54,993 nt of DNA from a virus (Duplodnaviria; Heunggongvirae; Uroviricota; Caudoviricetes). The translations under genes and the position numbers were made by a program. Positions 19,682 through 37,790 of the stretch are shown here, in pieces. Within the stretch, counting starts at the first letter, position 1, and each line of letters begins with the position of its first letter. The DNA is taken from positions 1-54,993 of the IMG/VR virus record IMGVR_UViG_2923302340_000009; one strand, given 5' to 3'. The notes beneath the pieces are model-generated. The model searched no databases and had not been told where the DNA came from. It worked only from the letters and a program-made list of their open reading frames with translations.

Positions 19682-20707
19682 TTACGCCAGTTGTACAGAC
19701 ACGAACTCATCAGGGTCAGCCAGCAGCATCAGCGGTGCTGACTGAATCATGGTGAACTCACGCGCCGGGTCGCCGGTGGTCACCCAGTTTTTCGGGTAAC
19801 GGGCAGAGGCGTTAATGCCTTCACGCTGTGCGTCCGCATCCTGAATGCAGCCATAGGTGCGCAGACCGCGTGCCTGAGTGTTCCCCAGCACCATCGTGTT
19901 GTCCGGCAGGAAGTTCTTTTTGACGCCGTTTTCCACGTACTGTCCGGAATACACGACGATGGCCACATCGCCATACATTCCCTTATAAGACACCGCTTTG
20001 CCCAGGTCTTTTACCGCTGTCTCCAGCTCGGAATGAGAGCCGCGACGGGTATCCAGCTTCTCCTTGACGGCCTTGAAGGAACGGAACAGCGCCCAGCCTT
20101 TCGGATCAAACACGATGATATTCACCACACCGCTGGCGTTCAGCGCGTAGGCTTCGATATCGTCGGTCGGGTCATACGTGGACTTGTCACGCTTGCTCCA
20201 CTCCGTGCCGCCGGACTGCGTGATGTTATTCGCCGCACTGCGGCCCATATCCACCTCAACCGGATCGAAGGCTTCACCGGTCATGGTGTATTTGCCCTTA
20301 AGCACGGCAGAAACTGCCTGCATCTCTTCGACCTGGGCAATCGCCAGATTTTCATCCAGCATATTCTGCCGAATAATACGGCGACGACGGTAAGCCGGGT
20401 CAGCCAGGTTCTGCGGATCTTCATCCGGCAGGCGACGCAGGGTCATCTGCGGATTCACCTCATGCTTGGGTTTGACATAACCCGGCGTAAATTCAGAGGT
20501 GGAGCCGCCACGGGATCGGATAACCTCACCGGAAACAATCGGCGAAACGTACAGCGCCATGTTTACCAGTCCCGGAATTTGTGAGAGATAGACTTTCTCC
20601 GTGGTGAAGGGATAGCTCTCACGGAAAAAGAGACGCAGAAACAGCGGATCAAACTTAAATTTCTGCTCATTTGCCGCCAGCAGTTGGGCGGTTGTGTACA
20701 TCGACAT
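19682..20707 (-). CDS. E: major capsid protein E
   Basis: MSMYTTAQLLAANEQKFKFDPLFLRLFFRESYPF..., 341 aa as in lambda E. Confidence 0.96.
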   Translation of the reverse strand: MSMYTTAQLLAANEQKFKFDPLFLRLFFRESYPFTTEKVYLSQIPGLVNMALYVSPIVSGEVIRSRGGSTSEFTPGYVKPKHEVNPQMTLRRLPDEDPQNLADPAYRRRRIIRQNMLDENLAIAQVEEMQAVSAVLKGKYTMTGEAFDPVEVDMGRSAANNITQSGGTEWSKRDKSTYDPTDDIEAYALNASGVVNIIVFDPKGWALFRSFKAVKEKLDTRRGSHSELETAVKDLGKAVSYKGMYGDVAIVVYSGQYVENGVKKNFLPDNTMVLGNTQARGLRTYGCIQDADAQREGINASARYPKNWVTTGDPAREFTMIQSAPLMLLADPDEFVSVQLA

Positions 20708-20762: not shown

Positions 20763-21095
20763 TTAAACGATGCTGATTGCCGTTCCGGCAAACGCGGTCC
20801 GTTTTTTCGTCTCGTCGCTGGCAGCCTCCGGCCAGAGCACATCCTCATAACGGAACGTGCCGGACTTGTAGAACGTCAGCGTGGTGCTGGTCTGGTCAGC
20901 AGCAACCGCAAGAATGCCAACGGCAGCACCGTCGGTGGTGCCATCCCACGCAACCAGCTTACGGCTGGAGGTGTCCAGCATCAGCGGGGTCATTGCAGGC
21001 GCTTTCGCACTCAATACGCCGGGCGCGGTTGCGGTATGAGCCGGGTCACTGTTGCCCTGCGGCTGGTAATGGGTAAAGGTTTCTTTGCTCGTCAT
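20763..21095 (-). CDS. D: head decoration protein D
   Basis: [26 protein letters not shown]..., 110 aa as in lambda D. Confidence 0.96.
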
Positions 21096-21104
21096 AAACA
21101 TCCC

Positions 21105-21710
21105 TTACACTGGTGTGTTCAGCAAATCGTTAACGGCATCAGATGCCGGGTTACCTGCAGCCAGCGATGCCGGTGCCCCCTGCATCAGACGATCCAGCGC
21201 AGTGTCACTGCGCGCCTGTGCACTCTGTGGTGCTGCGGCCAGAATGCGGCGGGCCGTTTCCACGGTCATACCGGGGGTTTCTGCCAGCACGCGGGCCTGT
21301 TCTTCGCGTCCGTGAGCCTCCTCACAGTTGAGGATCCCCATAATGCGGCTGTTTTCTGCCGCAACCGCAGCGGTGATCTGCGCGTTCACGTCCGGCTGCG
21401 CCGCGCTGGCGTTTTCGCCCTCCGTCGCTGGCACCACGTCAGTAACGTCAGCCTGCGAAGCAGTGGCTGAAACAGTTGTTGATTGAGTCTCTTTGGTCAT
21501 TCGCCCTCCTGAGAGACGGGATTTACGTGCATCCAGTGCATCACGCATAACGGTGATCGCATCGGTACTGTTAACAAGTTCATCAGCCAGTCCGGCATCA
21601 ATGGCCTCCTGACCGCTGTACACTGCAGCCTCGGTATCCAGCACAGCCTGCACAGACAGGCCGGTATATGCCGACACCTTCTGCGCAAACATCTGGCGGG
21701 TTGCGTCCAT
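21105..21710 (-). CDS. Nu3: scaffolding protein Nu3 (nested in-frame in C)
   Basis: The internal ATG at 21710 (MDATRQMFAQKV...) gives 201 aa, the lambda Nu3 length. Confidence 0.75.
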   Translation of the reverse strand: MDATRQMFAQKVSAYTGLSVQAVLDTEAAVYSGQEAIDAGLADELVNSTDAITVMRDALDARKSRLSGGRMTKETQSTTVSATASQADVTDVVPATEGENASAAQPDVNAQITAAVAAENSRIMGILNCEEAHGREEQARVLAETPGMTVETARRILAAAPQSAQARSDTALDRLMQGAPASLAAGNPASDAVNDLLNTPV

Positions 21711-22424
21711 CCGGGACTGCAGTGTCTCCCGGACGTCATCCGGAAGATGGCTGTAGGGATTGCCATCCACCTTATGGCTGCCGCTGTAAATCAGCGTGAT
21801 TTCCACGCCCTGTTTCTCCAGCGCAGCACCGTAATTGCTGTGAGCCATCATGACGCCGATGGAGCCTGTCCGGGCGGTCTGCGTGACCAGACGCCGGGAG
21901 GCGGCGCTGGCAAGCAGCTGACCTGCACTGCAGTTCATGTCGTTGGCCAGCGCCCATACCGGTTTTATGTCTCGCACACGGGCGATGATGTCAGCACAGT
22001 CAAATGCTCCCGCCACCATCCCGCCCGGTGTGTCCATATCCAGCAGAATGCCGTCCACCATCGGATCGCTGGCAGCCTGTTGCAGACGGGCGATAATGCC
22101 GTTGTAACCGGTCATCCCCGAGTACGGCTGCAGCGCCCGCGTCCGGCTGACCAGCGTACCGGACACCGGCAGCACGGCGATGCCGTTCATGACCTGATAG
22201 CTGCGGGCCTGTCGTGGTCCGTCATCATCACCGGATATCGCCAGCGCCGCGGGTGCCTCTCCGGCAGTCAGGCTGTCGCCGGATACTGCATCCGTCAGGC
22301 GGCTGATCCCAAGCTGGCCTGCAAGCGCACAAAAGAAAACCCGCGCATAGGCGGGTTCAAGCATCAGCGGCTCATTAAAAGCCATGCTGGCAATATGCGG
22401 GAGATTACGCAGCTCTGCTGTCAC
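21105..22424 (-). CDS. C: head maturation protease C
   Basis: A GTG start after GAGGAGGAG gives VTAELRNLPHIASMAFNEPLMLEP..., 439 aa as in lambda C. Confidence 0.93.
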   Translation of the reverse strand: MTAELRNLPHIASMAFNEPLMLEPAYARVFFCALAGQLGISRLTDAVSGDSLTAGEAPAALAISGDDDGPRQARSYQVMNGIAVLPVSGTLVSRTRALQPYSGMTGYNGIIARLQQAASDPMVDGILLDMDTPGGMVAGAFDCADIIARVRDIKPVWALANDMNCSAGQLLASAASRRLVTQTARTGSIGVMMAHSNYGAALEKQGVEITLIYSGSHKVDGNPYSHLPDDVRETLQSRMDATRQMFAQKVSAYTGLSVQAVLDTEAAVYSGQEAIDAGLADELVNSTDAITVMRDALDARKSRLSGGRMTKETQSTTVSATASQADVTDVVPATEGENASAAQPDVNAQITAAVAAENSRIMGILNCEEAHGREEQARVLAETPGMTVETARRILAAAPQSAQARSDTALDRLMQGAPASLAAGNPASDAVNDLLNTPV

Positions 22425-23178
22425 TCTTCTCCTCCTCTGTTGATTGTCGCAGTCCGGATTCAAATGCCGCAGCCGCCCAGGCGGGCGGTTTAAGACCGGC
22501 TGCACGGCGCTCCATCGTTTCACGGACCTGCTGGGCAAAAATTTCCTGATAGTCGTCACCGCGTTTTGCGCACTCTTTCTCGTAGGTGCTCAGTCCGGCT
22601 TCTATCAGCATCACCGCTTCCTGTACTTCTTTCAGACCATCGATGGCCATACGACCGGAGCCTATCCAGTCACAGTTCCCCCAGGCACTGCGGGCTTCCT
22701 GAAAGCTGAAGCGCGCTTTTGAAGGTAACGTCACCACGCGGCGAACGATGGCCTCTTCCAGCCAGCACAGAAACATCTGGCTCGCCTGACGGGATGCGAC
22801 GAATTTTCGCCGCCCCATAAAGTACGCCCACGACTCGTTCGCGCTGGCCCGTGCCGTGGAGTAGCTCATCTGGGCGTAATTCCGGGAAAGCTGCTCATAC
22901 GAGACACCCAGCCCGGCAGCGATATACCGCAGCAGTGACTGCTCAAACACGGAGTAGCCGTTATCCGTATCCTGAGCCGTCTGCAGGTTCAGTGAGTCAC
23001 CCGGCATCAGGTGCGGCACTTTTGCGCCTCCAAGCCGGACCGGCGCTGCGGCGTAATACGCGGCAATTTCACCAATCCAGCCGGTCAGCTTGTCCCGCTG
23101 CTCCTGACTGTTCGCGCCCAGAATAAAATCCATCGCTGACTGCGTATCCAGCTCACTCTCAATGGTGGCGGCATACAT
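22405..23178 (-). pseudogene. B: portal protein B, 3' part (codons 277-533)
   Basis: MYAATIESELDTQSAMDFILGANSQEQR...EEEKSDSRAA is the C-terminal 257 aa of lambda B. It is separated from the 5' part by 10.9 kb. Confidence 0.93.
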
Positions 23179-23186
23179 CGCCTTTA
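23170..23186. repeat. island-proximal att repeat (core cata[c]atcgcctt)
   Basis: The 13-mer catacatcgcctt (23172-23184) recurs as cataaatcgcctt at 34072-34084, exactly 10,900 bp away. The extended match is 14/17. Confidence 0.85.
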
Positions 23187-23258
23187 TGAAAAGACAGGAA
23201 AAAATAAAATTTAAAAACAGTACATTACGAATGCTCAGACCTATCGTTTAAAGGAGTC

Positions 23259-23280
23259 GCAATACACACTGCAATACACG
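23259..23280 (+). repeat. two direct copies of GCAATACAC(A/G); candidate integrase arm-type sites
   Basis: The copies gcaatacaca (23259-23268) and gcaatacacg (23271-23280) lie ~80 bp from the att core. Three more copies sit at the other island end. Confidence 0.6.
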
Positions 23281-23313
23281 ATTATTTATAAGATGAGCGG
23301 CATCCGTCATAAA

Positions 23314-23552
23314 GCTGGTGGATGCTTTTTCTATGCATATATGCACAGTTTTAGTGGGCGTTAATGTCGATATAGGGATCCCCATATCGAGATTGGATAC
23401 CTGGCTTTTTTCCGGTTAACCTTTAATCAGGCTGGTGGGCTTTACCTGTTTTGTATGAGTGGTCATCATGACCATGTCATAACAAAAACCCCATATTCGT
23501 GGTTTTTCTGTGTCGGGCTATTCTGTCGTTGCTGTGCTGATTTGGCTGGTGG
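23314..23552 (+). repeat. three co-oriented Chi octamers (GCTGGTGG) in non-coding DNA
   Basis: Exact gctggtgg occurs at 23314-23321, 23431-23438 and 23545-23552. Confidence 0.9.
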
Positions 23553-23620
23553 GCTGAATCATCATTACGGCGATGCAGCTATGTAGACGTTCCGGCCTCC
23601 TCAAATTGAGGATTGTGGAA

Positions 23621-23769
23621 GAATCAATGGGTTAGTCTTACTTTCCCGACATCCCCCAATGGGGGTTTTCGAAACAATCAATAGCTTAGGCTTACTTCCC
23701 CGATTTCCTGCATTGCAGGTTTTCGAAATAATCAATGGGTTAGGCCATCGTGCAATTTTGCACTTTGCC
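23621..23769 (+). repeat. tandem units (54, 54 and ~41 bp), each an AATCAATRGSTTAG box plus a short GC hairpin and T-run
   Basis: Unit A (23621-23674) and unit B (23675-23728) are 42/54 identical. The hairpin cccccaatggggg in A becomes cctgcattgcagg in B through paired substitutions. The third unit carries gtgcaattttgcac. Confidence 0.75.
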
Positions 23770-23954
23770 AGCCAGCGCAATGTCGCGTTATCAGTCCTCA
23801 GATGTGAGGGATGTAGCCAGCTTTTCCCCCAGTGGGGGATATCCAGCACCGACGGCTTAACTGTGCGTGCCAGCACAAGGTAGCCTTGAACTACTTACTG
23901 CATCCCATCTTACAGGCCGTGCCTTCCTGCTTAACTTTTTGCAATGCAACAAGT

Positions 23955-23978
23955 CAGCCAGCGCAATTTTGCGTTATC
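23955..23978 (+). repeat. 24-bp direct repeat cagccagcgcaatNtNgcgttatc (second copy)
   Basis: The first copy lies at 23769-23792 and matches 22/24. It contains the small palindrome cgcaa-tt-ttgcg. Confidence 0.7.
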
Positions 23979-23993
23979 GGGAATATCAGCAAG

Positions 23994-24275
23994 TTACCGC
24001 CGCAATCGTTCCGGCTTCTTCCACTGGTAAGTATTTTTCGCGCTCTCCCTCCGTTGTTGAGAAAGGCGACGATATGCCAGCAACTCAAGGACTCTTGTTC
24101 GTATGTTGCGCATATCCACGCCGTTAAGCTCAATACCGTCACGGCGCATCACCTCAGCCACTACACGCACATAATTATCTGCGGTCACGCTGTCCGGCTG
24201 CGTGGCCTGTTCGTCATGCTGCTTGCTGATTCCACAAGCACGGCGGATTAATCGCAGTATTTCGGATTCAGTCAT
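23994..24275 (-). CDS. hypothetical basic protein downstream of the island small terminase
   Basis: 93-aa ORF, 12 nt after the terS-like stop. No family recognised. Confidence 0.5.
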   Translation of the reverse strand: MTESEILRLIRRACGISKQHDEQATQPDSVTADNYVRVVAEVMRRDGIELNGVDMRNIRTRVLELLAYRRLSQQRRESAKNTYQWKKPERLRR

Positions 24276-24286
24276 AGCGTACTACG

Positions 24287-24829
24287 TTACTTATCTTTAT
24301 TCGGCTGCAACTTATCCGGTACGTTTCCGGCAGTTTCCATCAGATAATCGGACAGCATCAGCGGTATGTTTTCGTCAAGTTTTGCGCATGCGTTACAGGC
24401 TCTGATAACTTCTTTTTTCAGTCCATCCAGCATAGACGGCTTCATGTCGGGAAACTTCCTTGTCATGGCAAGCGGCAGGCTGTCCATGATTGAAGAAATC
24501 TGACTCGCCAATTTTGAAAGCACGTATATACAAAACGCTGTATCAATAACGTCGCCGCGTTCGCGCTCGTTTTTAAGCTCCTGCGCCTCTGCCTGTGCTG
24601 TCAGCAATCTGATCCTGACTCGTAGGAGTTCATCATCATCAATCTCGCCTTTGTCGTCTGTAATCTGGTTAATTGCATTGCTAACCCGATTGTCTATTAC
24701 GCTGGCAACATCATAAAACGCCTCGCGGCCTTTACGTTCAACGGGAGTCACTCCCCACTTGTCGAACGCTGTCGCACTTACACGGCAGCTTTGCGCCATG
24801 TTTTTTTTGTTCATCAGGTGCGATTTCAT
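24287..24829 (-). CDS. small terminase subunit, Nu1-like (island-encoded)
   Basis: The C-terminal half (AQAEAQELKNERERGDVIDTAFCIYVLSKLASQISSIMDSLPLAMTRKFP...) aligns with Nu1 in this same window (AQADAQELKNARDSAEVVETAFCTFVLSRIAGEIASILDGIPLSVQRRFP...). The N-terminal wHTH part is diverged. The start at 24829 follows a GGGGA RBS; the ORF track starts at a GTG at 24841. Confidence 0.85.
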   Translation of the reverse strand: MKSHLMNKKNMAQSCRVSATAFDKWGVTPVERKGREAFYDVASVIDNRVSNAINQITDDKGEIDDDELLRVRIRLLTAQAEAQELKNERERGDVIDTAFCIYVLSKLASQISSIMDSLPLAMTRKFPDMKPSMLDGLKKEVIRACNACAKLDENIPLMLSDYLMETAGNVPDKLQPNKDK

Positions 24830-24841
24830 CAATATCCCCAC

Positions 24842-25030
24842 TTAAGTAATGTTTCAGGTTGGTGTATTGACTTTATCTTTTCCTTTTTATTCATAGAGAT
24901 AGAGCGAACAACAAAACCACCACCAGCACCCGAAAAAGGCTCATAAATAGCGAAAACCCGCGAGGTCGCCGCCCCGTAGCCTACCGGATCACCGGAAAGG
25001 ACCCGCCAGCCAGAGCGGGCCCTAATTTCA
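24842..25030 (-). promoter_or_regulatory. island cos site (cosQ-cosN-cosB); cosN 12-mer at 24963-24974
   Basis: Positions 24941-25012 are 64/72 identical to the prophage cos (37706-37777). cosN on the coding strand reads GGGCGGCGACCT, the canonical lambda cohesive end. The cosB side toward terS is unrelated to lambda. Confidence 0.85.
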
Positions 25031-25414
25031 TCAACCAATCAGCTTATAGCGACCATCCCGTGCATTGCGGCGTACACGCTCAATCTTGAGGCATAGCGCC
25101 GCATCTGGCTTTTTTGGGACAGGTACGCGGCAATATTCAGAAGCGCGAGGAATATTATTTATCCAGTCGATCACTTCACTTAAATACCAGGCCTTACGCC
25201 CTTCCGTAACCTGCACACGCTCCGGGAACTCTCCACTAGCCTCAAGGTTTAGCAGTGTACGACGACTCAGGGTTGTAATTTCCATCACCTGATTCATATC
25301 AACAAGGCGCTCGCTTAAACACATTTTGTCAGCGATAGCTTTTAATTCCTCTACAGCTGGATTCGGGTACATCATTTCGGCAATTGGCTTAAGGTCATTG
25401 TAATCATTCTGCAT
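25031..25414 (-). CDS. AlpA/MerR-type HTH protein (island late region)
   Basis: 127 aa. The central segment LVDMNQVMEITTLSRRTLLNLEASGEFPERVQVTEGRKAWYLSEVIDWI fits the AlpA-family HTH pattern. Confidence 0.65.
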   Translation of the reverse strand: MQNDYNDLKPIAEMMYPNPAVEELKAIADKMCLSERLVDMNQVMEITTLSRRTLLNLEASGEFPERVQVTEGRKAWYLSEVIDWINNIPRASEYCRVPVPKKPDAALCLKIERVRRNARDGRYKLIG

Positions 25415-25425
25415 TGTATCCCCCT

Positions 25426-25767
25426 TTACACACGAGCCAGCGGCTGAACAGAAATACCTGAGCCAACAAACGCTGCAACCTTTACTGACAGTTCTTTAAC
25501 AGACTCAGGCCAGTTCAGAGCATCAACATTTAAGACACCTGTCTTATAGACCTGAGCCTGTGTTTTTTTCGCGGTGTCGATTTGTACAGCGGAAACATAA
25601 ACCGCTTTACCTACGCTCGAACCATCCCATACCACCAGTGCACCTGTTGCATCTTCCTGCATCAGTGGCGTAAATGCAGGAATTACCCCTTTATTAGCTG
25701 AAAATATCCCCAGCGTAGTCACCAGTGCTTCAGTGCCAGCCATGAGTTCAGTGTAATGAGTAGCCAT
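25426..25767 (-). CDS. head decoration protein D homologue (island-encoded)
   Basis: 113 aa with a strong RBS. It shares the D pattern TPLM..D....LV.WDG....AV...YK.G......L.WPE......AF.G..ISV with the helper D at 20763-21095. Confidence 0.75.
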   Translation of the reverse strand: MATHYTELMAGTEALVTTLGIFSANKGVIPAFTPLMQEDATGALVVWDGSSVGKAVYVSAVQIDTAKKTQAQVYKTGVLNVDALNWPESVKELSVKVAAFVGSGISVQPLARV

Positions 25768-25776
25768 TGCTCCCCC

Positions 25777-26823
25777 TTAGCCAATGCGAACGGTAACAAA
25801 ACGATTGATGCGGGCCGGTATTGGCTGTGGTGCTGAATGTGTCTGCACATATTCAATAGCCGGATCACCAGGCACAATATAGTTTTTCGGTGCAAGTTCG
25901 GCTTTAGTCAGCCCCATTCGGATTAGCTCCGGATCCTGAATACCGCCATAGGCGACAATCCCCTGAAGAGCCGTATTGCCAAGCACCATCAAATCAGGAT
26001 CAAGGAAATGTTTTTCTGTTCCGTCCTCGTCGGTATAACGCCCGCTGTAAACAACAATCGCAACATCGCCCATATACCCTTTAAAACTCACCGAATCACC
26101 AAGGTCTTTAAGGGCCGTTTCCAGTTCGGAATTAGAACCACGACGGGTATCCAAAGCCTCTTTTATCGCTCTGAATGAACGGTATTTCTTCCATACATTA
26201 CCACCCATAATGATGATATTAGTGACGCCCTCACTAAATTCTGCGTAGCTCTCAATATCATCATTTGGATCAAAAGTTTCTTTATCCTTACCTGACCACT
26301 CAGTACCGCCAGACTGAGTGATGATATTTTGTGGTTTTATATTCCAGTCCAGCTCATAACGTTCAATACCATCGCCCTCAATGATATTTTTCCCCGTTGT
26401 GATTGCCTGAACAGCAAGCCATTCAATACGTGCACGAATAGCTTTAGCCTGATTTACAATCGCCTGTTTAACTTTAATATTACGCGCCCCAAAAGCATTG
26501 TATTGCTCAGGTGACACACCAGCAGGGCGCACAGCTAACTTATTTGGATCAATGCTGCTTTTCGGCTTCATATAACCTGGACGAATTGTTTTTGATTCGT
26601 ATCCCTCATCTCGTGAAACTTTACTGCCCACCATAGGAGAGCAAAACGCCGCGATCGGGATATTTGGATCGTCGATCGTATCAAGAATAATGTCTCTCGA
26701 TTCAAACATTACCGAGCGAGTGAAAAACAAACTGGTAAACAACGCATTTAATTTTTTTTGCACATCTTCAGCATTAGCCACCTGCACAAGCTGTGTAGGC
26801 GAATATAAATCAACCATACTCAT
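25777..26823 (-). CDS. major capsid protein E homologue (island-encoded)
   Basis: MSMVDLYSPTQL... compares with lambda MSMYTTAQLL. A long collinear similarity includes GGTEWSGKDKETFDPNDDIESYA...DTRRGSNSELETALKDLGDSVSFKGYMGDVAIVVYSG against the helper E. The start could be 26823 or 26817. Confidence 0.88.
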   Translation of the reverse strand: MSMVDLYSPTQLVQVANAEDVQKKLNALFTSLFFTRSVMFESRDIILDTIDDPNIPIAAFCSPMVGSKVSRDEGYESKTIRPGYMKPKSSIDPNKLAVRPAGVSPEQYNAFGARNIKVKQAIVNQAKAIRARIEWLAVQAITTGKNIIEGDGIERYELDWNIKPQNIITQSGGTEWSGKDKETFDPNDDIESYAEFSEGVTNIIIMGGNVWKKYRSFRAIKEALDTRRGSNSELETALKDLGDSVSFKGYMGDVAIVVYSGRYTDEDGTEKHFLDPDLMVLGNTALQGIVAYGGIQDPELIRMGLTKAELAPKNYIVPGDPAIEYVQTHSAPQPIPARINRFVTVRIG

Positions 26824-26988
26824 CCTCTTTACATTCATTACAAATAATTGTGAATATATTCTATTACCGATGTCTGCTATGCGAACACATGCAACCAAGT
26901 GCAATGTTGTATAAAATATGCCGTAACAACTTCAGTGCTGATAATTCGTGTTAATGTATTTACTTCCTTTGGTCGGGATTTATGTAGC

Positions 26989-27017
26989 ATGCCGGAAAAT
27001 CTATTTTTTTCCGGCAT
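26989..27017. other. 11-bp-arm hairpin (atgccggaaaa-N7-ttttccggcat) between the ssb and capsid genes
   Basis: Read directly. A T-rich run follows on the plus strand only, so its role as a terminator of the minus-strand operon is uncertain. Confidence 0.5.
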
Positions 27018-27034
27018 CTTTTTGTTTGCAGAAT

Positions 27035-27457
27035 TTAAAACGGTATATTATCGCCGTACGGATCATCATTCCCCGACTGTTGTTTTGCCCTGTTCAGTGC
27101 GTCAGTGGCCTGCCCCTGCTGGCCTTTTTTGCCGCCCGGTCGCGCCGTTCGCGCACTGATTACGCTGTCTGCGATAACCTGCCAGCCCCGCCGCGTTTCG
27201 CCGTTCTGGCCTGTCCACTGGCTTACCTGCATGTTACCCGCCACGCTCACCAGTTCGCCTTTGTGGTGTTTTGCCAGTGCGTCGGCCTGTCTGCCAAACG
27301 CCAGGACGGATAACCACATCGTCGCCGTTCCGTCATCTGCCTGGCTGCACGGCAGGGGAACCGCCATACTCGCCATCGCCATTTGTGTCCCTTTGCTGGT
27401 GGTCTTTAACTGCGGGTCAGCCACCAGCCGCCCGTAAGCCGCTATCTGTGCTGTCAT
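27035..27457 (-). CDS. ssb: single-stranded DNA-binding protein
   Basis: 140 aa with an OB-fold-like N-terminus, a Gly/Gln-rich linker and the acidic SSB tail ...DDPYGDNIPF. Confidence 0.8.
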   Translation of the reverse strand: MTAQIAAYGRLVADPQLKTTSKGTQMAMASMAVPLPCSQADDGTATMWLSVLAFGRQADALAKHHKGELVSVAGNMQVSQWTGQNGETRRGWQVIADSVISARTARPGGKKGQQGQATDALNRAKQQSGNDDPYGDNIPF

Positions 27458-27705
27458 GCTGTCTGCTCTCCGGTTTTAACATTGATGGTTGTCACCTGTT
27501 CCGCTTCGGCAATCTCCCGTTCTGTCAGCGTGGCAAAGTTTGCCGCTGCTGTGGTCATAAATGCGCTTATCAGGTCGGGATGTTCCTTCGCGTATCCTGC
27601 CCGTGTGTGGTGGTCTATCGCTTTGATTGCCACCTTTAAGGAAAGCTCTGTCATGTCTAACGCTTTATATTTTGCCTGTGTTCTGTCTCTGCGAATTTTG
27701 GTCAT
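27454..27705 (-). CDS. hypothetical protein
   Basis: The ORF overlaps the ssb start (ATGA). The likely start is MTKIRRDRTQAKYK at 27705; the tracked ORF extends to 27768. Confidence 0.5.
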   Translation of the reverse strand: MTKIRRDRTQAKYKALDMTELSLKVAIKAIDHHTRAGYAKEHPDLISAFMTTAAANFATLTEREIAEAEQVTTINVKTGEQTA

Positions 27706-27818
27706 TTGTCGCCCCTGATTCATGTTTTCGGCTGGCATGTTTGTTAAGTGATTTTTATGTATGCGCATTTATTTTCACCCCCCCTCGTTTAAAAAGTTTT
27801 TAGTTGTGCCTCCCCCCC

Positions 27819-28037
27819 TCTACCCATCTACCCGAATGCTCATCATGTCAGTAATGGCGCCGCTTTCAGCGGGTAGATAGCTTTTTTGACTCCTCTACCT
27901 GCCGTCTACCCTGCTACCTGAAACTGATAAAATCAGGTAGAAGAGGTAGAGAGCTTTTATTAGCCTTCTACCTAGCCCTATATCCACTTATCATGTTGAA
28001 TAATATGCATTTATTTCGTTCAGGTAGATGGGGTAGA
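27819..28037. repeat. island replication origin: at least 10 TCTACC/GGTAGA iterons flanking an AT-rich core
   Basis: tctacc occurs at 27819, 27827, 27894, 27905 and 27967. ggtaga occurs at 27872, 27936, 27945, 28023 and 28032. The AT-rich stretch at 27975-28020 lies immediately downstream of the primase-helicase gene. Confidence 0.8.
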
Positions 28038-28053
28038 TGGCTTTTACAAAAAA

Positions 28054-29808
28054 TTATAAAAACGCGTCGCAATCGTCTGTTGTAATTGCGTTGGTCTGCG
28101 TTACTCCCTTAACTTTTCGCGTAATATATTCATGCCCGTAAACTTTCGCCGCTGGCTTCATGGCCTTGCTGAACTCAGCCACGTTTAGCGGTTTGCTCCT
28201 GCCCGCGTATGCCATAAACGCCAGATAGACGCGGTAAAGGCTGTTCCTGGTCGTGTACTTCACTGAATCACCACCGCCACCCATCATCAGGCCGCGCGCT
28301 TCCTCCAGAAAATTCAGGAACTGGCAAAACTCAATAACCGGATCCGTCTGTTGCTTTATTGCCAGTGCTTCATCACCGTCACGCTGTTCCAGTAGTAAAG
28401 CCCGTGCCTTCTCAGGGTCGGTAAAGTTCGCCAGCAATCGGCGGATAATAACGGGGATTTCAGCCGCAATCTTTTCCGGTAGCTCCCTGTCTTTTTCGGC
28501 CTCACTGACGATATTGTCGAAACGGAAAATCACGCGACGACGTGCCACACCTCCGGCCCGTTCGGTGAATATCATCGGGTTGTTGTTGGTCGCCAGCACC
28601 ACCGCCCTGATTACCGCCGTGAAACGCTTTTCATATTTCGGGTTAATTTCCACGGGGTCGCCGCCTGTGATTTTCTTGATGCCCGTTCCTTCGCCTGTAT
28701 ATTTCGGCTGGTCAGCCAGGACGATAAGACGACTCCCGACAACCTGCGCACGTCCACCAGCATCATCAAGCGATGTCATTTCAGCGCTTACCGTGTTCTG
28801 TTTCCCTGCCAGAAGGCTGGCTATGTGTGTGAATGTACTTTTACCGCTCCCGCCGTCTCCGGTGGCCTCAATAAACATCTGCCAGTCGTACCGGTTCGCC
28901 ATAATCATGTACAGCGCGGCACATATACGCATCATCTTGCGCGGGTCTTTTCCGGCTGCGTGCTCAAGCCATTTATGAAAGTTTGGCGCGTTATCGCGGA
29001 TGTTCTCCCCTGGTGCTGGTGGCGTGTACTCAATGCCGTTGTGCGTGGTGATCCAGTTCTCCGGCGTGTGCGGGGAAAATTCCCCCGTTTTCAGGTCAAG
29101 CGCACCATTGGCGAACGGCAGCAAATCGCCAGACGGCTCGCCCATTGGTTCGGCAATAACTTTTAACGCTTCCACGGCGTTATTGATTACGCGCTTGCTG
29201 AAAGTGGCCCTGTGCTCTGAATAGATCGCCACCATTTCGCGGCTAAGTTCCATTGTGCTGACCGGACACCATACCCCGCCGCGCCATACGTGAACGATTT
29301 CACTTTCAGGATGTACGCAAACGCCATCAAAGCGATCGGCAAGCAACTGCGCGCGCTCACTGTCCGCCATCTGCGAAAGTTGCGCCTTTTGCTTTACCGG
29401 AAGCTCAATGACCAGACCATCAGAAAGATTCTGGCGTTCACGGGCCAGATATTCGCGCCAGGTCTGCACCTCCTGGCCGTGCATACCCTCAGGATAAAAA
29501 TTTGCATCCTGTACGCCTGCTGCCGCCAGCTTCTGACCAATCGCCTTTATCATTACAGGCGCAAGATATCCGGCCCTGTATATGCGTGCTGATTTTCGGC
29601 CTTCCGGCACAATTTGCAGATTATCCAGTTCGGATAGCTGCTGCTCCCCAAGCCACACAGGAGGCTCATTATCTCCGGCCATACGCGCATCATGTTCCTG
29701 CCATTGTTTCGCGTGTGCCCAGGCATCACTACCCGCAAAAATAATTACTTCTGTTCCTTTGTGTTTTATGCCGCGTGACTGCTGTTTTACGTTCGGTGCC
29801 AGTTTCAT
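28054..29808 (-). CDS. primase / SF3-helicase replication protein (P4-alpha / D5-like)
   Basis: 584 aa with a Walker A motif EATGDGGSGKSTF and a central phage/plasmid-primase-like region. It is adjacent to the iterons. Confidence 0.8.
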   Translation of the reverse strand: MKLAPNVKQQSRGIKHKGTEVIIFAGSDAWAHAKQWQEHDARMAGDNEPPVWLGEQQLSELDNLQIVPEGRKSARIYRAGYLAPVMIKAIGQKLAAAGVQDANFYPEGMHGQEVQTWREYLARERQNLSDGLVIELPVKQKAQLSQMADSERAQLLADRFDGVCVHPESEIVHVWRGGVWCPVSTMELSREMVAIYSEHRATFSKRVINNAVEALKVIAEPMGEPSGDLLPFANGALDLKTGEFSPHTPENWITTHNGIEYTPPAPGENIRDNAPNFHKWLEHAAGKDPRKMMRICAALYMIMANRYDWQMFIEATGDGGSGKSTFTHIASLLAGKQNTVSAEMTSLDDAGGRAQVVGSRLIVLADQPKYTGEGTGIKKITGGDPVEINPKYEKRFTAVIRAVVLATNNNPMIFTERAGGVARRRVIFRFDNIVSEAEKDRELPEKIAAEIPVIIRRLLANFTDPEKARALLLEQRDGDEALAIKQQTDPVIEFCQFLNFLEEARGLMMGGGGDSVKYTTRNSLYRVYLAFMAYAGRSKPLNVAEFSKAMKPAAKVYGHEYITRKVKGVTQTNAITTDDCDAFL

Positions 29809-30104
29809 TTTTTACCTCTGAATCCGTTAATCATGGTTTTCATTTTCTGGATATTTCCCCACGCTTTTTCCCTGCTGATGGGCTTACTGCGGGGTGCGGC
29901 ATATACCAGGGAAAAATCACGCCGGAACTGATAAACAGGCATCACGCAGTCATAGCTATACCCCTCACGGCGGTAAGTGATGCGCCGTTCTGCCACGCCT
30001 TTAATCGTTACCGTGCCGCCGTATTTATCGCGGTAAATATCGCCGTTCATAAATTCAGGTCGAGCGGGGCCGCTGGCAATAAAGCCAGAATTTTTCATTT
30101 CCAT
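29805..30104 (-). CDS. DUF4222-like small protein
   Basis: 99 aa. The motif GDIYRDKYGGTVTIKGVAERRITYRREGYSYDCVMPVYQFRRDF resembles DUF4222 proteins. Family recalled from memory. Confidence 0.5.
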   Translation of the reverse strand: MEMKNSGFIASGPARPEFMNGDIYRDKYGGTVTIKGVAERRITYRREGYSYDCVMPVYQFRRDFSLVYAAPRSKPISREKAWGNIQKMKTMINGFRGKK

Positions 30105-30121
30105 ATTATTTATTCCTCGAC

Positions 30122-30343
30122 TTAACTCGACTTATTTGATAGCAGGGCACTATTTATTGCGTCATTGAGTTTTTCTGCTGATTCATCAATAAGTGACAAC
30201 AGGCCATAAGCAATATTTGCATCTTCATTGTCATTTATGCAATCAAGCCACATATTTAATATTGCTTTTGCTGAATTATTTAAAGTTAATGAACTTTCTG
30301 CACATGCTAACAATTTAAAAAAGACTTCCCGTTCTGTATTCAT
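30122..30343 (-). CDS. hypothetical protein
   Basis: 73-aa ORF in the operon, low GC. Confidence 0.45.
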   Translation of the reverse strand: MNTEREVFFKLLACAESSLTLNNSAKAILNMWLDCINDNEDANIAYGLLSLIDESAEKLNDAINSALLSNKSS

Positions 30344-30535
30344 TTAATCCCCCACCAGCTTACTTTCTTCCTCAATCAAAAAACTAGCGACACTTCCCGA
30401 AAGACGCGCCAGTAGGCTCGCCAGTGCGGATATATCAGCATCTGTAATTTTGTTCGGGTATACCTCAAGAAGGCGGCAAATAATTTCTGTCTGGTGCGCA
30501 CGTTCAGCGGCTTCGTGTAATGTAATTTCCTGCAT
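30344..30535 (-). CDS. hypothetical protein
   Basis: 63-aa ORF abutting its neighbours, which suggests coupling. Confidence 0.45.
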   Translation of the reverse strand: MQEITLHEAAERAHQTEIICRLLEVYPNKITDADISALASLLARLSGSVASFLIEEESKLVGD

Positions 30536-30720
30536 TAATGCACCTCTTTTAATTCATACACTGCTGAAATAATGACTTGTGATAAGCCATATTCTGATGA
30601 TTCGCTTCTCACCGCAGCAATAGCCGTCTGAACATTAACAGCCTTCACATTCTGAGCGATACCAATTGTGTGGCCTATTGGGTTAACAGCTCGGGCAAAT
30701 ACACGGAAGGTTTTAAGCAT
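30535..30720 (-). CDS. hypothetical protein
   Basis: 61-aa ORF. Its start overlaps the stop of the upstream gene (ATGCTTAA). Confidence 0.45.
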   Translation of the reverse strand: MLKTFRVFARAVNPIGHTIGIAQNVKAVNVQTAIAAVRSESSEYGLSQVIISAVYELKEVH

Positions 30721-30910
30721 GACTCACTCCCTGGCGGATTTTTGCAGCGAATACAGCAACACAACCGGACGGGCAACGGCTACGCGCTTCGCGTTCCGTC
30801 CAGGCGGTTACGTGGATGATTTGAGATTCTCCGGCACTCAGTGCCAGAAAACGCCACACAAAGGCCGTTTGTGTGTGTACAAGGTGTGGTATATGATTTA
30901 CAGCAACCAT
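30713..30910 (-). CDS. Icd-like small protein (cell-division-inhibitor-like family of P1/P4-type elements)
   Basis: 65 aa, MVAVNHIPHLVHTQTAFVWRFLALSAGESQIIHVTAWTEREARSRCPSGCVAVFAAKIRQG, with an AGGAG RBS. It is the only credible part of the 356-aa tracked ORF. Family recalled from memory. Confidence 0.45.
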   Translation of the reverse strand: MVAVNHIPHLVHTQTAFVWRFLALSAGESQIIHVTAWTEREARSRCPSGCVAVFAAKIRQGVSHA

Positions 30911-30939
30911 AACGGCTCCTAGTTTACGTTGTTGGTTAG

Positions 30940-30973
30940 ACGCCCCGTATGTGTTCCCAGCACTGCGGGGCGT
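30940..30973. other. 8-bp-stem hairpin (acgccccg-N18-cggggcgt) in the leader of the island early operon
   Basis: Read directly. It lies between the operator repeats and the Icd-like start, so it is a candidate leader or antisense RNA element. Confidence 0.45.
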
Positions 30974-31001
30974 TGCTCTTTGTATTTCAACAATCCTTTC
31001 G

Positions 31002-31079
31002 GTGTGTTTCATGTTATGAGCGCATGAAACACACGTCAAGGCTTTTTGTATTTCTTTTTTTGTGTATACTGAAACACAC
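31002..31079. promoter_or_regulatory. operator-like repeats in the divergent control region
   Basis: A perfect 12-bp inverted repeat gtgtgtttcatg (31002-31013) / catgaaacacac (31023-31034) is present. A third half-site tgaaacacac lies at 31070-31079, just upstream of the RHH-like gene. Confidence 0.65.
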
Positions 31080-31100
31080 CGATGATTAGGAGTTTCAGAA

Positions 31101-31406
31101 ATGGCAACGGCTAACAAAAACGCAAAATCACAACTGACAACTGTCAGAGTCCCACTAGATGTTATGCAAGGGATGGAATCCGTTAAGCTGGACGGTGAAA
31201 GCAATGCCGGATTTATCGTAACCGCCATGCGCGGAGAAATAGCCCGCCGCCAAGCAGAAGGCAGCGGAGAAAATCCCCTTGTGTCGTCACTGGATGCCCT
31301 GGCTAAGGTCGAACAAATCGGCATCAAAGCAGCCGAGGAGATCGGGCAACTCGTCACCGTCGCGCGTGAAGAACTCCAGCGACGCAAGGTCAAAGAGCAT
31401 GAATAG
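31101..31406 (+). CDS. putative ribbon-helix-helix regulator (candidate island repressor)
   Basis: 101 aa with an AGGAG RBS. The N-terminus QLTTVRVPLDVMQGMESVKL...GFIVTAMRGEIARRQ fits a beta-strand plus two helices. It is divergent from the replication operon. Confidence 0.45.
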   Translation: MATANKNAKSQLTTVRVPLDVMQGMESVKLDGESNAGFIVTAMRGEIARRQAEGSGENPLVSSLDALAKVEQIGIKAAEEIGQLVTVAREELQRRKVKEHE

Positions 31407-31463
31407 CCAATATCAGCGCCATAGTTTGAGGAACGCAGGCGCATTGCTTTACAGGACAGCACC

Positions 31464-31643
31464 ATGAGCGACACAGAATCAACCAAAACACCATCACCAA
31501 CTCGTAAGAGACGACGCAAAAATATAGCGCATGAACATGAATCAGAAAGATTCGCACCTTGTTCGTTTGCTCTTGAGAAATTCCTTAAAGAGCACAGGAA
31601 AAAGCTCTCGTTGCAAACCTTGGAACGAACCAAATCTGACTGA
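31464..31643 (+). CDS. possible 59-aa basic protein
   Basis: ATG at 31464 with AGGA 7 nt upstream. It encodes MSDTESTKTPSPTRKRRRKN... and is followed by a terminator. It falls below the ORF-track cutoff. Confidence 0.35.
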   Translation: MSDTESTKTPSPTRKRRRKNIAHEHESERFAPCSFALEKFLKEHRKKLSLQTLERTKSD

Positions 31644-31709
31644 TCACATTGCCCACCAGCCGCAAATGTGGCATTGTTGGTGATGCTTTTGTTTTCCCTT
31701 GTTCCCACT

Positions 31710-31739
31710 GGCGACCCTTTTGCGGTCGCCTTTGTTTTG
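31710..31739 (+). terminator. rho-independent terminator
   Basis: The hairpin ggcgacc-cttttgc-ggtcgcc is followed by tttgttttg. Confidence 0.75.
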
Positions 31740-32318
31740 TCACTGAATGCGGTTACCAAAGTAAAACTCAGGCTGATATTCACGTATCAGCGTTTTTTCT
31801 TCTTCCTCCAGCTCACGCTTTTTGCGCTTACATGCCTGTAGCTCCCTCCCCTTCTCGCTGGCACTTATTTGATATTGCTCTTTACGGCGGGAAAAATCCT
31901 GTAATGCACCCCACGGGATACCATAAGTCCCCGTTTTTCTGATACCTGGTATCACATTTCTGAATACCCAGTTACTGAAACGATGAGCAAATGTGCCAGG
32001 CGTCGTTGCTTTGCGGCTGCGGGCTATTAGTTTGTAGAAACCTGACTCAGAGATAATTCTCATATTCTGATTTCCTCCTGGGGTGTAAGTTAAATTTACT
32101 CCCTTTTCATCATCATCAAGCATCTGCAACGCCGTACGCGAATTGGTTAGTTCCAGCGCAGCACAAACATCTTTTGCAACAAACCACGGATCGCCGTTCA
32201 GATACACCACACGAACGTTCACACTATCAAAGCGCAGAACGACGAGATCACGAATATCGCAGAATTTTTTCACTGGACGAGCGTACCCCTTGCCCGTCAC
32301 GGCAATATTTTTATTCAT
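31740..32318 (-). CDS. Bro-N domain protein (antirepressor-like)
   Basis: 192 aa. VRVVYLNGDPWFVAKDVCAALELTNSRTALQMLDDDEKG...ISESGFYKLIARSRK matches the Bro-N pattern. Confidence 0.75.
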   Translation of the reverse strand: MNKNIAVTGKGYARPVKKFCDIRDLVVLRFDSVNVRVVYLNGDPWFVAKDVCAALELTNSRTALQMLDDDEKGVNLTYTPGGNQNMRIISESGFYKLIARSRKATTPGTFAHRFSNWVFRNVIPGIRKTGTYGIPWGALQDFSRRKEQYQISASEKGRELQACKRKKRELEEEEKTLIREYQPEFYFGNRIQ

Positions 32319-32338
32319 CGCGTTTTTACCTTATAGAC

Positions 32339-32361
32339 AAAAAACCCCTCGTGATGAGGGG
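32339..32361 (-). terminator. rho-independent terminator between the alpA-like and bro-like genes
   Basis: The coding strand reads gcccctc-atcac-gaggggtttttt. Confidence 0.7.
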
Positions 32362-32374
32362 CATTATTTACTGG

Positions 32375-32632
32375 TTATTGCTGTTTTGTTTTTCCAGGTT
32401 TCCATCCAGGATGCCACTCACCACGGATCCATGCCTGAACCTCTGAAAGTCGATACCCTGCAGCACGTTCACCGATCTTGATACGTCGCGGGAATTTACC
32501 TGCCTGCTCCATTTTCCAGCGTGTTGAGTTTGCCAGCGTGGTAAGTGCTATGCACTCTTTTTCACGAATGAACCGATCAATGTCCTTCATTGTGCGCAAA
32601 TCGTTTTCATCAACAAGAGAATAAATTGCCAT
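32375..32632 (-). CDS. alpA: AlpA-family transcriptional regulator / excisionase-like
   Basis: 85 aa. FIREKECIALTTLANSTRWKMEQAGKFPRRIKIGERAAGYRLSEVQAWI is the AlpA pattern. It lies immediately downstream of int. Confidence 0.85.
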   Translation of the reverse strand: MAIYSLVDENDLRTMKDIDRFIREKECIALTTLANSTRWKMEQAGKFPRRIKIGERAAGYRLSEVQAWIRGEWHPGWKPGKTKQQ

Positions 32633-32633
32633 A

Positions 32634-33875
32634 TCACACCACCTCTTTATTAAGCTCGATAACGTTGTTGTTAAATCCTGCTATCGTATTAAGGTAATTA
32701 ACCCACATATTAAGCACCTCAAGTTTTTTCTTTATATGCCTGCTTTTATTGTAAACACCAGCAACCCCTTTCACTTTATGACCTAAAAGAAGTTCGACAA
32801 TATAAGGATCCGCCCCCATATCATTAAGCGTAGTGGAAAATGTGCGCCTGAAATCATGTATGCACCACAAGCCATTAGTATCATGACCAAGACGCCTGCA
32901 TATTCTGTTTGCAGCCCCTGTTATTGTCGCCCTTTGCAAAGCACAACCGACAACATAACCGCGATTTTTTGTTTCTGCGTAAAGATTAACGATCCATTGT
33001 TTTATTCCGTCAGGAACAGGCCTTACTATAGCCTCCTTGTTTTTGCTGTGCTCTTTTGGGACTGTCCATACCCAGTTTTTTAAATCCCATTCGTCCCAGG
33101 TGGATAGCCTCGCCTCCTGCTGTCGGCAACCAAACACCAGGCAGATAACCATTATTCTTCGGTTATATATTGATGACAGAGTTAGCAAATTATTACCGTA
33201 AGCATAAGACCATACATCAGCGGTTTCATTGATATTAAGAACGCGATCCCTTATACCGGATGAGCGCCCGACATAACTTACGTTAATATCTCCAAAGGGA
33301 TCGCACGCGATGTATTGCCTGACGCGACAAAAACGCAACGCCTGTTTGATATCAAGAAAAATTGCACCAGACATAACAGGCGCATTTTTTTTGATCCTGT
33401 CAAAGACGGTAAGCCATGTGTGTAATTTGCACTGTTCTATAGCCATATCACCGATATAGGGGAAGATATGCTTTTCAAATCGTTTTATTAAATATTCATG
33501 CTCTTTTCTGGCTGTTGTGGCGTGATTGTCGTACCAGTAAAACAGCGCATCCCTTACGGTCACTGGTTGCATAGTTTTTTCGGCAGCAAGTTTTATTTGC
33601 CTGCGGGGGTCCAGATTTTCAGCCAGCCATTCACGGCACTGATCACGCATGCGCCTGGCCGTTGCAAGAGACATGTCAGGATAGCGACCAAGTGTAAGCC
33701 ATACCGGAGGGAATTCCCTGCCACCAAGACGATAGTAAAAAACAAAGCTGATCCCCCCAACCATGCTTACACGCACAGACAACCCGCGCCCATCCGCTAT
33801 TGTTTTTTGTTTGTCCTGCCGTTTTCCGACAAGACTCTTTAACAGTTTGTCACTGAGTTTGTTTTCAATAGCCAT
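32634..33875 (-). CDS. int: tyrosine integrase, P4-type
   Basis: 413 aa with an N-terminal DUF4102-like arm-binding part and the catalytic motifs HDFRRT, LLGH and a C-terminal Tyr region. It is adjacent to the att repeat. Confidence 0.92.
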   Translation of the reverse strand: MAIENKLSDKLLKSLVGKRQDKQKTIADGRGLSVRVSMVGGISFVFYYRLGGREFPPVWLTLGRYPDMSLATARRMRDQCREWLAENLDPRRQIKLAAEKTMQPVTVRDALFYWYDNHATTARKEHEYLIKRFEKHIFPYIGDMAIEQCKLHTWLTVFDRIKKNAPVMSGAIFLDIKQALRFCRVRQYIACDPFGDINVSYVGRSSGIRDRVLNINETADVWSYAYGNNLLTLSSIYNRRIMVICLVFGCRQQEARLSTWDEWDLKNWVWTVPKEHSKNKEAIVRPVPDGIKQWIVNLYAETKNRGYVVGCALQRATITGAANRICRRLGHDTNGLWCIHDFRRTFSTTLNDMGADPYIVELLLGHKVKGVAGVYNKSRHIKKKLEVLNMWVNYLNTIAGFNNNVIELNKEVV

Positions 33876-33895
33876 TAAAAGCCCTCAAGAGATTT

Positions 33896-33947
33896 GCAAT
33901 ACACACCCATCCCGATCGCCAATTTGCAATACACATTGCAATACACA
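33896..33947 (+). repeat. three direct copies of GCAATACACA; candidate integrase arm-type sites
   Basis: The copies lie at 33896-33905, 33926-33935 and 33938-33947, in the same orientation as the two copies at 23259-23280. Confidence 0.6.
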
Positions 33948-34023
33948 AAACCGCGAAAAACTGGAAGGGTGATGAACGGTCATCAAAAGCATGGAAAACG
34001 ACATTCCAGACGCAGCAAGGGTT

Positions 34024-37004
<2,981 letters not shown>

Positions 37005-37030
<26 letters not shown>

Positions 37031-37550: not shown

Positions 37551-37790
37551 TGTTCATTCCACGGACAAAAACAGAGAAAGGAAACGACAGAGGCCAAAAA
37601 GCCCGTTTTCAGCACCTGTCGCTTCCTTTCTTTTCAGGGGGTATTTTAAATAAAAACATTAAGTTACGGCGAAGAAGAACGGAAACGCCTTAAACCGGAA
37701 AATTTTCATAAATAGCGAAAACCCGCGCGCCTTCCGCCCCGTAGCCTGCCGGATCGCCGGAAAGGACCCGCCAGCCATTCGGGTTTACTT
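37551..37790 (-). promoter_or_regulatory. prophage cos (cosB-cosN-cosQ); cosN 12-mer at 37728-37739
   Basis: The cosB and cosQ flanks match my recollection of lambda almost base for base. The coding-strand cosN reads GGGCGGAAGGCG instead of GGGCGGCGACCT. Confidence 0.85.

Follow-up and report, generated by a model that had tools for sequence, protein, structure and literature searches.

The stretch of DNA considered here (the window, 54,993 nt in all, IMG/VR virus record IMGVR_UViG_2923302340_000009, Caudoviricetes) holds a lambdoid prophage and, inside the late genes of that prophage, a satellite island of the kind called phage-inducible chromosomal islands (PICIs), with the prophage as its helper. 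The island occupies 23177-34083 on the minus strand and, computed from these positions, measures 10,899 bp between 8-bp direct repeats. Two of its genes, side by side on the minus strand, are the subject of this work: an E-like gene (25777..26817), a homologue of the gene for the lambda major capsid protein gpE, and a D-like gene (25426..25767), a homologue of the genes for the head decoration proteins gpD and SHP. The helper's own major capsid gene E (19682..20707) and decoration gene D (20763..21095), also on the minus strand and recognised as open reading frames (ORFs), by alignment and from RefSeq annotation, are the comparators. An earlier interpretation made from the letters alone, the sequence-only reading, had already placed a satellite island of 10.9 kb with a cos and terS of its own beside its helper, and in this it was correct, the island having int, AlpA and primase genes as well.

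The product of the E-like gene is a protein of 346 aa, assigned to the satellite clade of gpE homologues by alignment, Pfam and an AlphaFold model. It is 42% identical to helper E and collinear with it across 349 columns (E=2e-87), and it matches the Pfam family Phage_cap_E (PF03864) over profile positions 4-327 of 329 (E=2.9e-41, 142 bits against a cut-off of 22.9), which bears out the earlier claim of a full-length, collinear homologue of lambda E. Of the two strings that had been quoted as shared, GDVAIVVYSG is indeed identical in the two proteins, the other is not quite so, as DTRRGSNSELETALKDLG of the island is DTRRGSHSELETAVKDLG in the helper, a difference of one residue (N/H) beyond the position that had been given as a wildcard. 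The better start is the ATG at 26817, ~7 nt after a ribosome-binding site AGAGGA and thus the better spaced from it, and the same start is used in RefSeq; the end coordinate of 26823 given earlier belongs to an in-frame ATG two codons upstream and is the poorer choice.

The best match of E-like among PDB sequences is 3BQW (E=1e-121), released in 2008 and described as 'putative capsid protein of prophage (E. coli CFT073)', which appears to be c1499 of the E. coli PICI EcCICFT073. The AlphaFold model (pLDDT 80.5) has the same entry as its best fold match (TM 0.89), matches the lambda gpE chains 7SJ5/7VI9 with a TM of 0.84-0.88, and holds the N-arm, E-loop, spine helix and A-domain of the HK97 type. 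E-like is a member of the lambda gpE capsid family with what is modelled as a complete HK97-type fold, and its assembly into shells is a prediction. Upstream of the gene is a weak promoter-like site on the minus strand (26885-26858), not in itself a sign of function, and a perfect hairpin with an 11-bp stem (ATGCCGGAAAA...TTTTCCGGCAT) lies at 26989-27017, directly past the stop of the gene for the single-stranded DNA-binding protein (SSB). A promoter and terminator scan of the late zone found fewer promoter-like sites than in shuffled sequences. The E and D genes may have transcription signals of their own besides read-through.

The D-like gene encodes 113 aa and was assigned to the satellite clade of gpD/SHP head decoration homologues by alignment, Pfam and a search of PDB sequences. 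It shares 37% of its residues with helper D (E=3e-17) and matches the Pfam family HDPD (PF02924; E=4.5e-15, 56.3 bits against a cut-off of 29.1), so that the D homologue that had been reported is present. Its best PDB sequence match is 1TD0/1TD3, a 'head decoration protein' that we take to be phage 21 SHP (E=5e-16), with lambda gpD at E=1e-11. By these matches D-like is a member of the gpD/SHP decoration family, predicted to sit as a trimer on the three-fold sites of the expanded shell. The order E then D is as it had been described, but the pair is not directly upstream of cos as had also been stated, a second AlpA-family regulator of 127 aa lying between D-like and cos (25031..25414, minus strand; Pfam PF05930, E=7.6e-9).

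Homologues of E-like fall into two groups in the hit list, with a clear gap between them. Members of the satellite group, c1499 included, share 50-100% identity with the island E-like (at least 362 bits) and no more than 48% with helper E, whereas those of the phage group share no more than 44% with the island E-like (full-length hits of at most 288 bits) and 47-96% with helper E. The pair shares with lambda gpE/gpD and phage 21 SHP the Pfam families, the full-length collinearity and the fold, but differs in forming a separate clade, with 38-44% identity for E and 37% for D, that is satellite-borne at every locus examined. This satellite-only context rests on nine loci, the window and eight others, chosen non-systematically and covering eight genera in all. 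The E/D pair was present in all eight of the other PICI loci, with D-like directly after E-like in each neighbourhood read. One of these islands, in Edwardsiella (L009), is at the portal gene site as in the window, those of Kosakonia (L008) and Cedecea (L007) are inside the E gene of their helper, those of Serratia (L012) and Lelliottia (L011) are next to fis, that of CFT073 is at a chromosomal site, and the remaining two are PICI islands of Kluyvera (L005) and Superficieibacter (L006). A second AlpA gene directly after D-like is also found in L005-L008 and L012, at 49-69% identity.

When the window was compared with four islands of other genera, the proportion of synonymous differences (pS) in E-like was 0.66-0.84, which is saturated, the proportion of non-synonymous differences (pN) was 0.04-0.13 and the ratio of the two substitution rates (dN/dS) was 0.02-0.07. 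For D-like pN was 0.08-0.21 and dN/dS 0.06-0.11; with synonymous sites saturated, both ratios are given only where dS was computable. No indels or stops were found across the five genera in the 346 codons of E-like or the 113 codons of D-like, and per-site conservation inside the satellite clade is as high as inside phage E. Because of the discrete clade and the dN/dS values the pair is, on sequence evidence, a discrete, old and conserved satellite module under strong purifying selection and not a stray prophage fragment.

It might be thought instead that the pair was recently captured from the head module of some other prophage, or is a decaying piece of one, and has no function of its own. 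The late zones of PICIs do capture late genes of prophages (PMC10111431), and a chimera of helper E and island E occurs on one metagenome scaffold. Such a fragment would, however, not be expected to form a clade with at most 44% identity to any phage E found, to keep the same neighbours in eight genera or to show saturated synonymous sites together with the low pN and the intact frames given above, nor do remnants of portal or protease genes lie beside the pair. This explanation is extremely improbable, and the suggestion made earlier that these are conserved island genes rather than a recombinational fragment has held up.

The chimeric E gene itself (P0043) is at 2801-3829 of scaffold LARS22-1_SAMN17618183_METAG-scaffold_2787 (L014). 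Residues 1 to ~230 of its product are nearly identical to helper-type E (87-100% per 30-residue block) and from residue ~240 to residue 342 there is full identity to the island E-like. Portal, protease and D genes of helper type stand before the gene, the island D-like and AlpA genes after it, and 52 nt are common to the two blastn matches. The gene is a true recombinant of helper and satellite or else an artefact of short-read assembly.

What follows the pair is not constant. After E/D the window, L006 and L008 have the gene for a TerS of Nu1 type, CFT073 and L011 that for an Rpp homologue, and L005 and L012 that for an unrelated protein of 208 aa; in L007 there was no match to the packaging-gene queries compared, and in L009 there was no island gene after D-like. 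The trio of E, D and TerS, whose conservation in other islands had been put forward as a check, is therefore a constant pair with a packaging gene that may be TerS, Rpp, another or none. In L011 (Lelliottia sp. SL45) an S49 protease/scaffold gene (11409-12752), 52% identical to helper C, stands directly after D-like and is followed by the Rpp homologue, and a Phage_HCP gene is found near alpA. It shows that the carriage of late genes is graded among PICI islands.

Divergence between the consensus sequences of the satellite and phage clades of E is unevenly spread, identity being lowest at residues 1-20 (0.20), 41-60 (0.35) and 121-140 (0.30) and highest at residues 221-260 (0.80-0.85). In the E-like model the diverged segments are the N-arm helices (1-20), the E-loop (41-60) and part of the long spine helix (121-140 of 108-141), a mapping that is coarse, by predicted secondary-structure element, with the tip of the E-loop (residues 56-70) of low confidence in the model. 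The mapping of divergence that had been advised was in this way run at the level of such elements. In structures of the lambda capsid the N-arm and E-loop of gpE contact gpD, and the divergence of these two elements fits the carriage of a matched D by the island.

The island cuts the helper portal gene B in two, a point on which the sequence-only reading was silent. The insertion is marked by two copies of the 8-bp core aaggcgat on the minus strand, one where the portal 5' part meets the island (34076..34083), the core being that listed for B_Phage_portal_2_241 helper-embedded PICIs, and one where the island meets the portal 3' part (23177..23184). On the minus strand the 5' junction runs ...GTGAAGGCGAT and then TTATG..., the 3' junction ...ATAAAGGCGAT and then GTATGCC.... 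The 5' part of B (34084..34905, minus strand) is contained in an ORF at 34024-34905 that reads as portal up to ...QSAIVKA and then continues into island sequence, the 3' part (22405..23176, minus strand) starts MYAATIESEL..., and in an identical copy RefSeq annotates them as 'phage portal protein, missing C-terminus' and 'phage portal protein, missing N-terminus' respectively. Joined in silico at the core, the halves give an uninterrupted portal ORF of 533 codons that reads ...QSAIVKAMYAATIESEL..., and it is thereby shown that the helper has its portal protein only after excision of the island at aaggcgat. The late order of the helper on the minus strand is Nu1 (37005-37550), A (35105-37030), W (34902-35108), the split B, the S49 protease/scaffold gene (21105-22559), D, E, FI, FII and the tail genes, and the core genes of the island are co-oriented with this late operon.

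Islands of this sort have been described as helper-embedded PICIs (HE-PICIs), of which 491 were mapped to 14 sites (Tommasini, Mageeney and Williams 2023, PMC10111431). In the supplementary table of that work the type B_Phage_portal_2_241 is given the identity block aaggcgat and islands of ~10.9 kb, and among its listed members are CP011416.1/3698288-3709185 (Eco2613.11), CP006834.2/1830842-1841738 and CP015912.1/4478746-4489644 (PMC10111431). By megablast the island matches those catalogued in CP011416, CP006834 and CP015912 at 99.5-99.9% over its full length, the integrase gene with it, and by this identity its integrase belongs to the HE-PICI clade; at least 80% of the island is found in 52 complete E. 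coli genomes, many of them 99.5-99.9% identical and with the same split portal gene. Like other HE-PICIs the island lies within a late gene and shares its orientation, has the aaggcgat block, and gives back the late gene on excision. It also has the sequence features by which Gram-negative PICIs were defined (Fillol-Salom 2018), with int and alpA at one end, unidirectional genes, a pri/rep module, a length within 10-20 kb, no lysis or tail genes or complete head module, and a helper-type cos with a Nu1-type TerS. Compared with the published type it has the same core, portal target, size of ~10.9 kb and orientation, and no difference was found. The nucleotide comparison shows the island to be an HE-PICI of the published type B:Phage_portal_2:241. 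The published survey contains no analysis of the function or evolution of the E/D pair (PMC10111431), and it is the clade and the selection on it that are addressed by the present work.

Within the island the order is integrase, AlpA, Bro-N protein, small ORFs, DUF4222, D5/DUF5906 primase, SSB, E-like, D-like, the second AlpA-family gene, cos, Nu1-type terS and a gene for a 93-aa protein. The tyrosine integrase (32634..33875, 413 aa) is known from its ORF and RefSeq annotation and is 40% identical to that of EcCICFT073. It is adjoined by AlpA (32375..32632, 85 aa), annotated in a 99.9% identical RefSeq copy and similar to the second AlpA gene, and then comes the Bro-N protein (31740..32318; Pfam PF02498, E=4.9e-20). 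The primase/helicase (28054..29808, 584 aa; Pfam D5_N, DUF5906 and Pox_D5) and the SSB of the replication zone (27035..27457; Pfam PF00436) are 97.6% and 69% identical to their EcCICFT073 counterparts, and the conserved 93-aa protein of the last gene (23994..24275), which has no Pfam family, is 75% identical to the last one there. All of these lie on the minus strand. A gene of the YlcI/YnfO family (31101-31406) is the one island gene with a clear annotation on the plus strand, and its neighbours are the Bro-N gene and a gene for an Icd-like cell-division inhibitor, the latter known from annotation of the identical copy. Neither a Pfam scan nor the RefSeq annotation of the 99.9% identical copy gave any portal, S49 protease/scaffold, TerL, W, FI, FII or tail gene in the island, in agreement with the absence of B, C/Nu3, A, W, FI, FII and tail genes noted earlier. 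A doubled motif GCAATACACAnTGCAATACAC at 23259-23279 and 33926-33946, ~80-150 bp inside both ends, is probably the doubled attP-arm motif reported as unique to HE-PICIs (PMC10111431). Between the 93-aa gene and the 3' end of the island are three tandem 54-nt units (23592-23753, 65-72% identical), each with a short inverted repeat.

The cos region of the island (24892..25012, minus strand, 121 nt) shares 77% identity with the cos of the helper at 37657-37777, and within it, at 24963-24974, lies the lambda cosN GGGCGGCGACCT without a mismatch. The region diverges from the helper downstream of cosN, towards terS, which is the expected place of lambda's cosB. At the aligned cosN the helper cos (~37700-37720) reads GGGCGGAAGGCG, with 5 of 12 bases different and both flanks nearly identical. 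With a cosN of GGGCGGCGACCT in one and GGGCGGAAGGCG in the other, the cohesive ends of satellite and helper would differ.

The small terminase gene that follows (24287..24829, minus strand, 180 aa) was assigned to the Nu1 type by Pfam and alignment. Its product matches the C-terminal half of the Phage_Nu1 profile (E=3.5e-24, 85.7 bits against a cut-off of 30) and is 37% identical to helper Nu1 at full length, mostly in the C-terminal half, with weak similarity at residues 6-50 of the N-terminal part. The C-terminal half of lambda Nu1 is the part that binds gpA, the large terminase. No PDB sequence matched the island TerS at E<0.01, and a winged-helix DNA-binding domain in its N-terminal part is putative. 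Identity of the gene as an Rpp, which are proteins of 144-153 aa, was rejected, no BLAST match to RppA being found at E<1e-3.

Homologues of capsid and head decoration proteins were reported in EcCICFT073 as c1499/c1500 (Fillol-Salom et al. 2018, PMC6092414). With that publication of the genes in E. coli PICIs and the cataloguing of the island type (PMC10111431), the novelty that had been claimed for the pair falls away: the island type, the HE configuration, the E/D gene pair, the orthologue knock-outs and the orthologue crystal structure are all already known. EcCICFT073 was located in CFT073 at L004:27931-38700 and compared with the island. Gene order is shared, and identity is 97.6% for the primase, 73% for DUF4222, 69% for SSB, 75% for the last gene, 55% for E, 54% for D and 40% for the integrase. 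In both, the genes for primase, SSB, E and D are followed in synteny by a single small gene, by cos and its packaging gene, and by the 93-aa gene; EcCICFT073 differs in its chromosomal site, in having RppA (144 aa) and not a full Nu1-type TerS, and in having a 137-aa gene where the present island has the second AlpA.

The precedent for deleting c1499 and c1500 was Ccm of SaPIbov5, and with either gene deleted lambda still failed to regain plaque formation and the island was transferred as before (PMC6092414). The DNA of EcCICFT073 in particles was all phage-sized (PMC6092414), which is repeated in Dokland's review (PMC6893505). Of 29 reference Gram-negative PICIs 21 have a capsid gene, which is not needed for transfer (PMC10111431). 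No later functional work on capsid or decoration genes of PICIs was found in the literature searched, from which subscription-only papers are possibly missing.

The two genes are the capsid and decoration pair of a PICI late zone, for which a structural role can be proposed; the explanation as a whole, identity included, is probable. Such a role is argued from the complete fold, the capsid-like constraint and the invariable pairing with a decoration protein. The explanation favoured here, though held tentatively and short of an even chance, is that E-like and D-like are real structural proteins that are made late and enter full-size heads of the lambda type on the portal and scaffold of the helper. 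Late transcription can read into the co-oriented island genes, as has been argued for an island at the E site (PMC10111431). E-like, by itself or together with helper gpE, would assemble on the helper portal and the Nu3/C scaffold-protease, and the cognate D-like trimer would stabilise the full-size heads. A decoration protein acts on expanded shells only. As a matched D has been kept and decoration needs such shells, it can be argued that E-like ends in mature heads.

Packaging would start at the island cos through the island TerS, which would recruit helper gpA and so be island-specific without an Rpp, a step suggested by lambda biology and by the work on Rpp (PMC6739421). From homology and the published work, island DNA would be packaged as phage-length concatemers of four copies (4 x 10.9 = 43.6 kb), which is ~89% of a helper of ~49 kb, the size of the helper being itself estimated from 60-kb composites. 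Full-size heads are favoured because published heads and DNA are phage-sized and four copies come near to the helper length. The pair would be redundant where a laboratory helper brings E and D of its own, and this redundancy would explain why the EcCICFT073 deletions had no effect.

Several observations weigh against such a role. Single deletions of c1499 and c1500 changed neither the transfer by the resident prophage nor lambda interference, and EcCICFT073 with cat in place of c1499 still gave 1e5-1e6 transductants/ml (PMC6092414), so that the structural contribution of E/D, if any, is dispensable there; the element tested is moreover a 55%-identical orthologue and not the present island. 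Identity of the island E-like to its own helper's E (41-45%) is no higher than to any other phage E, so that nothing here points to co-adaptation. Mixing with helper gpE could be blocked by the divergence of the N-arm, E-loop and spine helix, and the presence of E-like and D-like in particles is a prediction from the genes.

The sequence-only reading had proposed shells specific to the island and possibly smaller, made by the pair on the portal, protease and scaffold of the helper; at T<7 such shells would admit only the 10.9-kb island, a strategy like that of Ccm or a partial form of capsid formation. There is precedent for this in Ccm, a capsid homologue that redirects size in SaPIbov5, and in PmCI172, which also has a capsid homologue and yields small capsids (PMC6092414; PMC6893505), whilst the strong selection on the pair requires some function. 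Scaling capacity as T^1.5 from the 48.5 kb of lambda at T=7 gives an estimate of ~13.6 kb for T=3 and of ~21 kb for T=4, so one or two island copies would fit. However, EcCICFT073 with the same module packaged only phage-sized DNA and lost nothing with c1499 or c1500, four copies (43.6 kb) already suit a full-size head, and the gene behind the small capsids of PmCI172 was never identified (PMC6092414). The published outcome is the one that had been named beforehand as refuting the idea, and smaller shells are thus unlikely, with the proviso that the evidence is from the E. coli orthologue. Ccm resembles the present pair in that a satellite without portal or protease encodes a homologue, with the HK97 fold, of the capsid protein of its helper, but it is ~23% identical to that protein, has no decoration protein and gives small capsids (PMC6893505), unlike the E. 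coli orthologue of the present pair with its phage-sized capsids and packaged DNA (PMC6092414; PMC6893505).

That the proteins act by interference, as dominant-negative subunits that poison the assembly of helper heads and lower phage yield, has some attraction in that satellites commonly disturb helper capsid assembly (PMC6092414; PMC6893505) and that a diverged N-arm and E-loop could make mixed capsomers defective. It is very unlikely all the same, as deletion of c1499 or c1500 did not relieve lambda interference (PMC6092414), interference in the EcCICFT073 family is due to Rpp acting on TerS (PMC6739421), and a poison would need no cognate decoration protein.

Another possibility is that the pair is a spare part that replaces helper E and D where these are missing, interrupted or incompatible, and so widens the range of usable helpers. 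Gene E is the commonest HE-PICI site (201 of 491), and the island copy has been suggested by the authors as a possible backup (PMC10111431). L007 and L008 do carry the E/D module while interrupting helper E, and a spare part would account for the null phenotype with intact laboratory helpers. The present island, however, interrupts B and not E, the chromosomal PICIs (L011 and L012 near fis, and CFT073) also have the pair, the helper gene is restored on excision anyway, and the redundancy is non-essential (PMC10111431). It is a doubtful explanation, although one with a real chance of being right, above all for islands that interrupt gene E.

The explanation preferred remains that of structural proteins that enter full-size heads, and beside it stands a further reading, that the heads of the native helper are partly or wholly built of satellite E/D, as satellite-only shells or specific capsomers, possibly with altered size or stability. 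This is improbable. A comparison can be made with capsid-forming PICIs (cf-PICIs), in which the satellite likewise encodes its own major capsid protein, and which are described as encoding all the proteins for their own small capsids. They differ in also having head-tail adaptor, connector and TerL genes (PMC10085698), none of which is in the present island, and cf-PICI membership was rejected as the island is without head-tail adaptor/connector, TerL, portal and protease genes.

If satellite E/D did build the heads of native helpers, these islands would be 'half capsid-forming' satellites, between classical PICIs and cf-PICIs, and the null phenotype in EcCICFT073 would be put down to the use of single deletions and laboratory helpers. 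The puzzle is in any case sharpened, in that most Gram-negative PICIs have a capsid gene and yet the only knock-outs gave no phenotype. Purifying selection on E-like is as strong as would be expected of a working structural protein, and the keeping of E/D over at least eight genera and three kinds of site, while the packaging gene is swapped, argues for a real function of the pair in these satellites.

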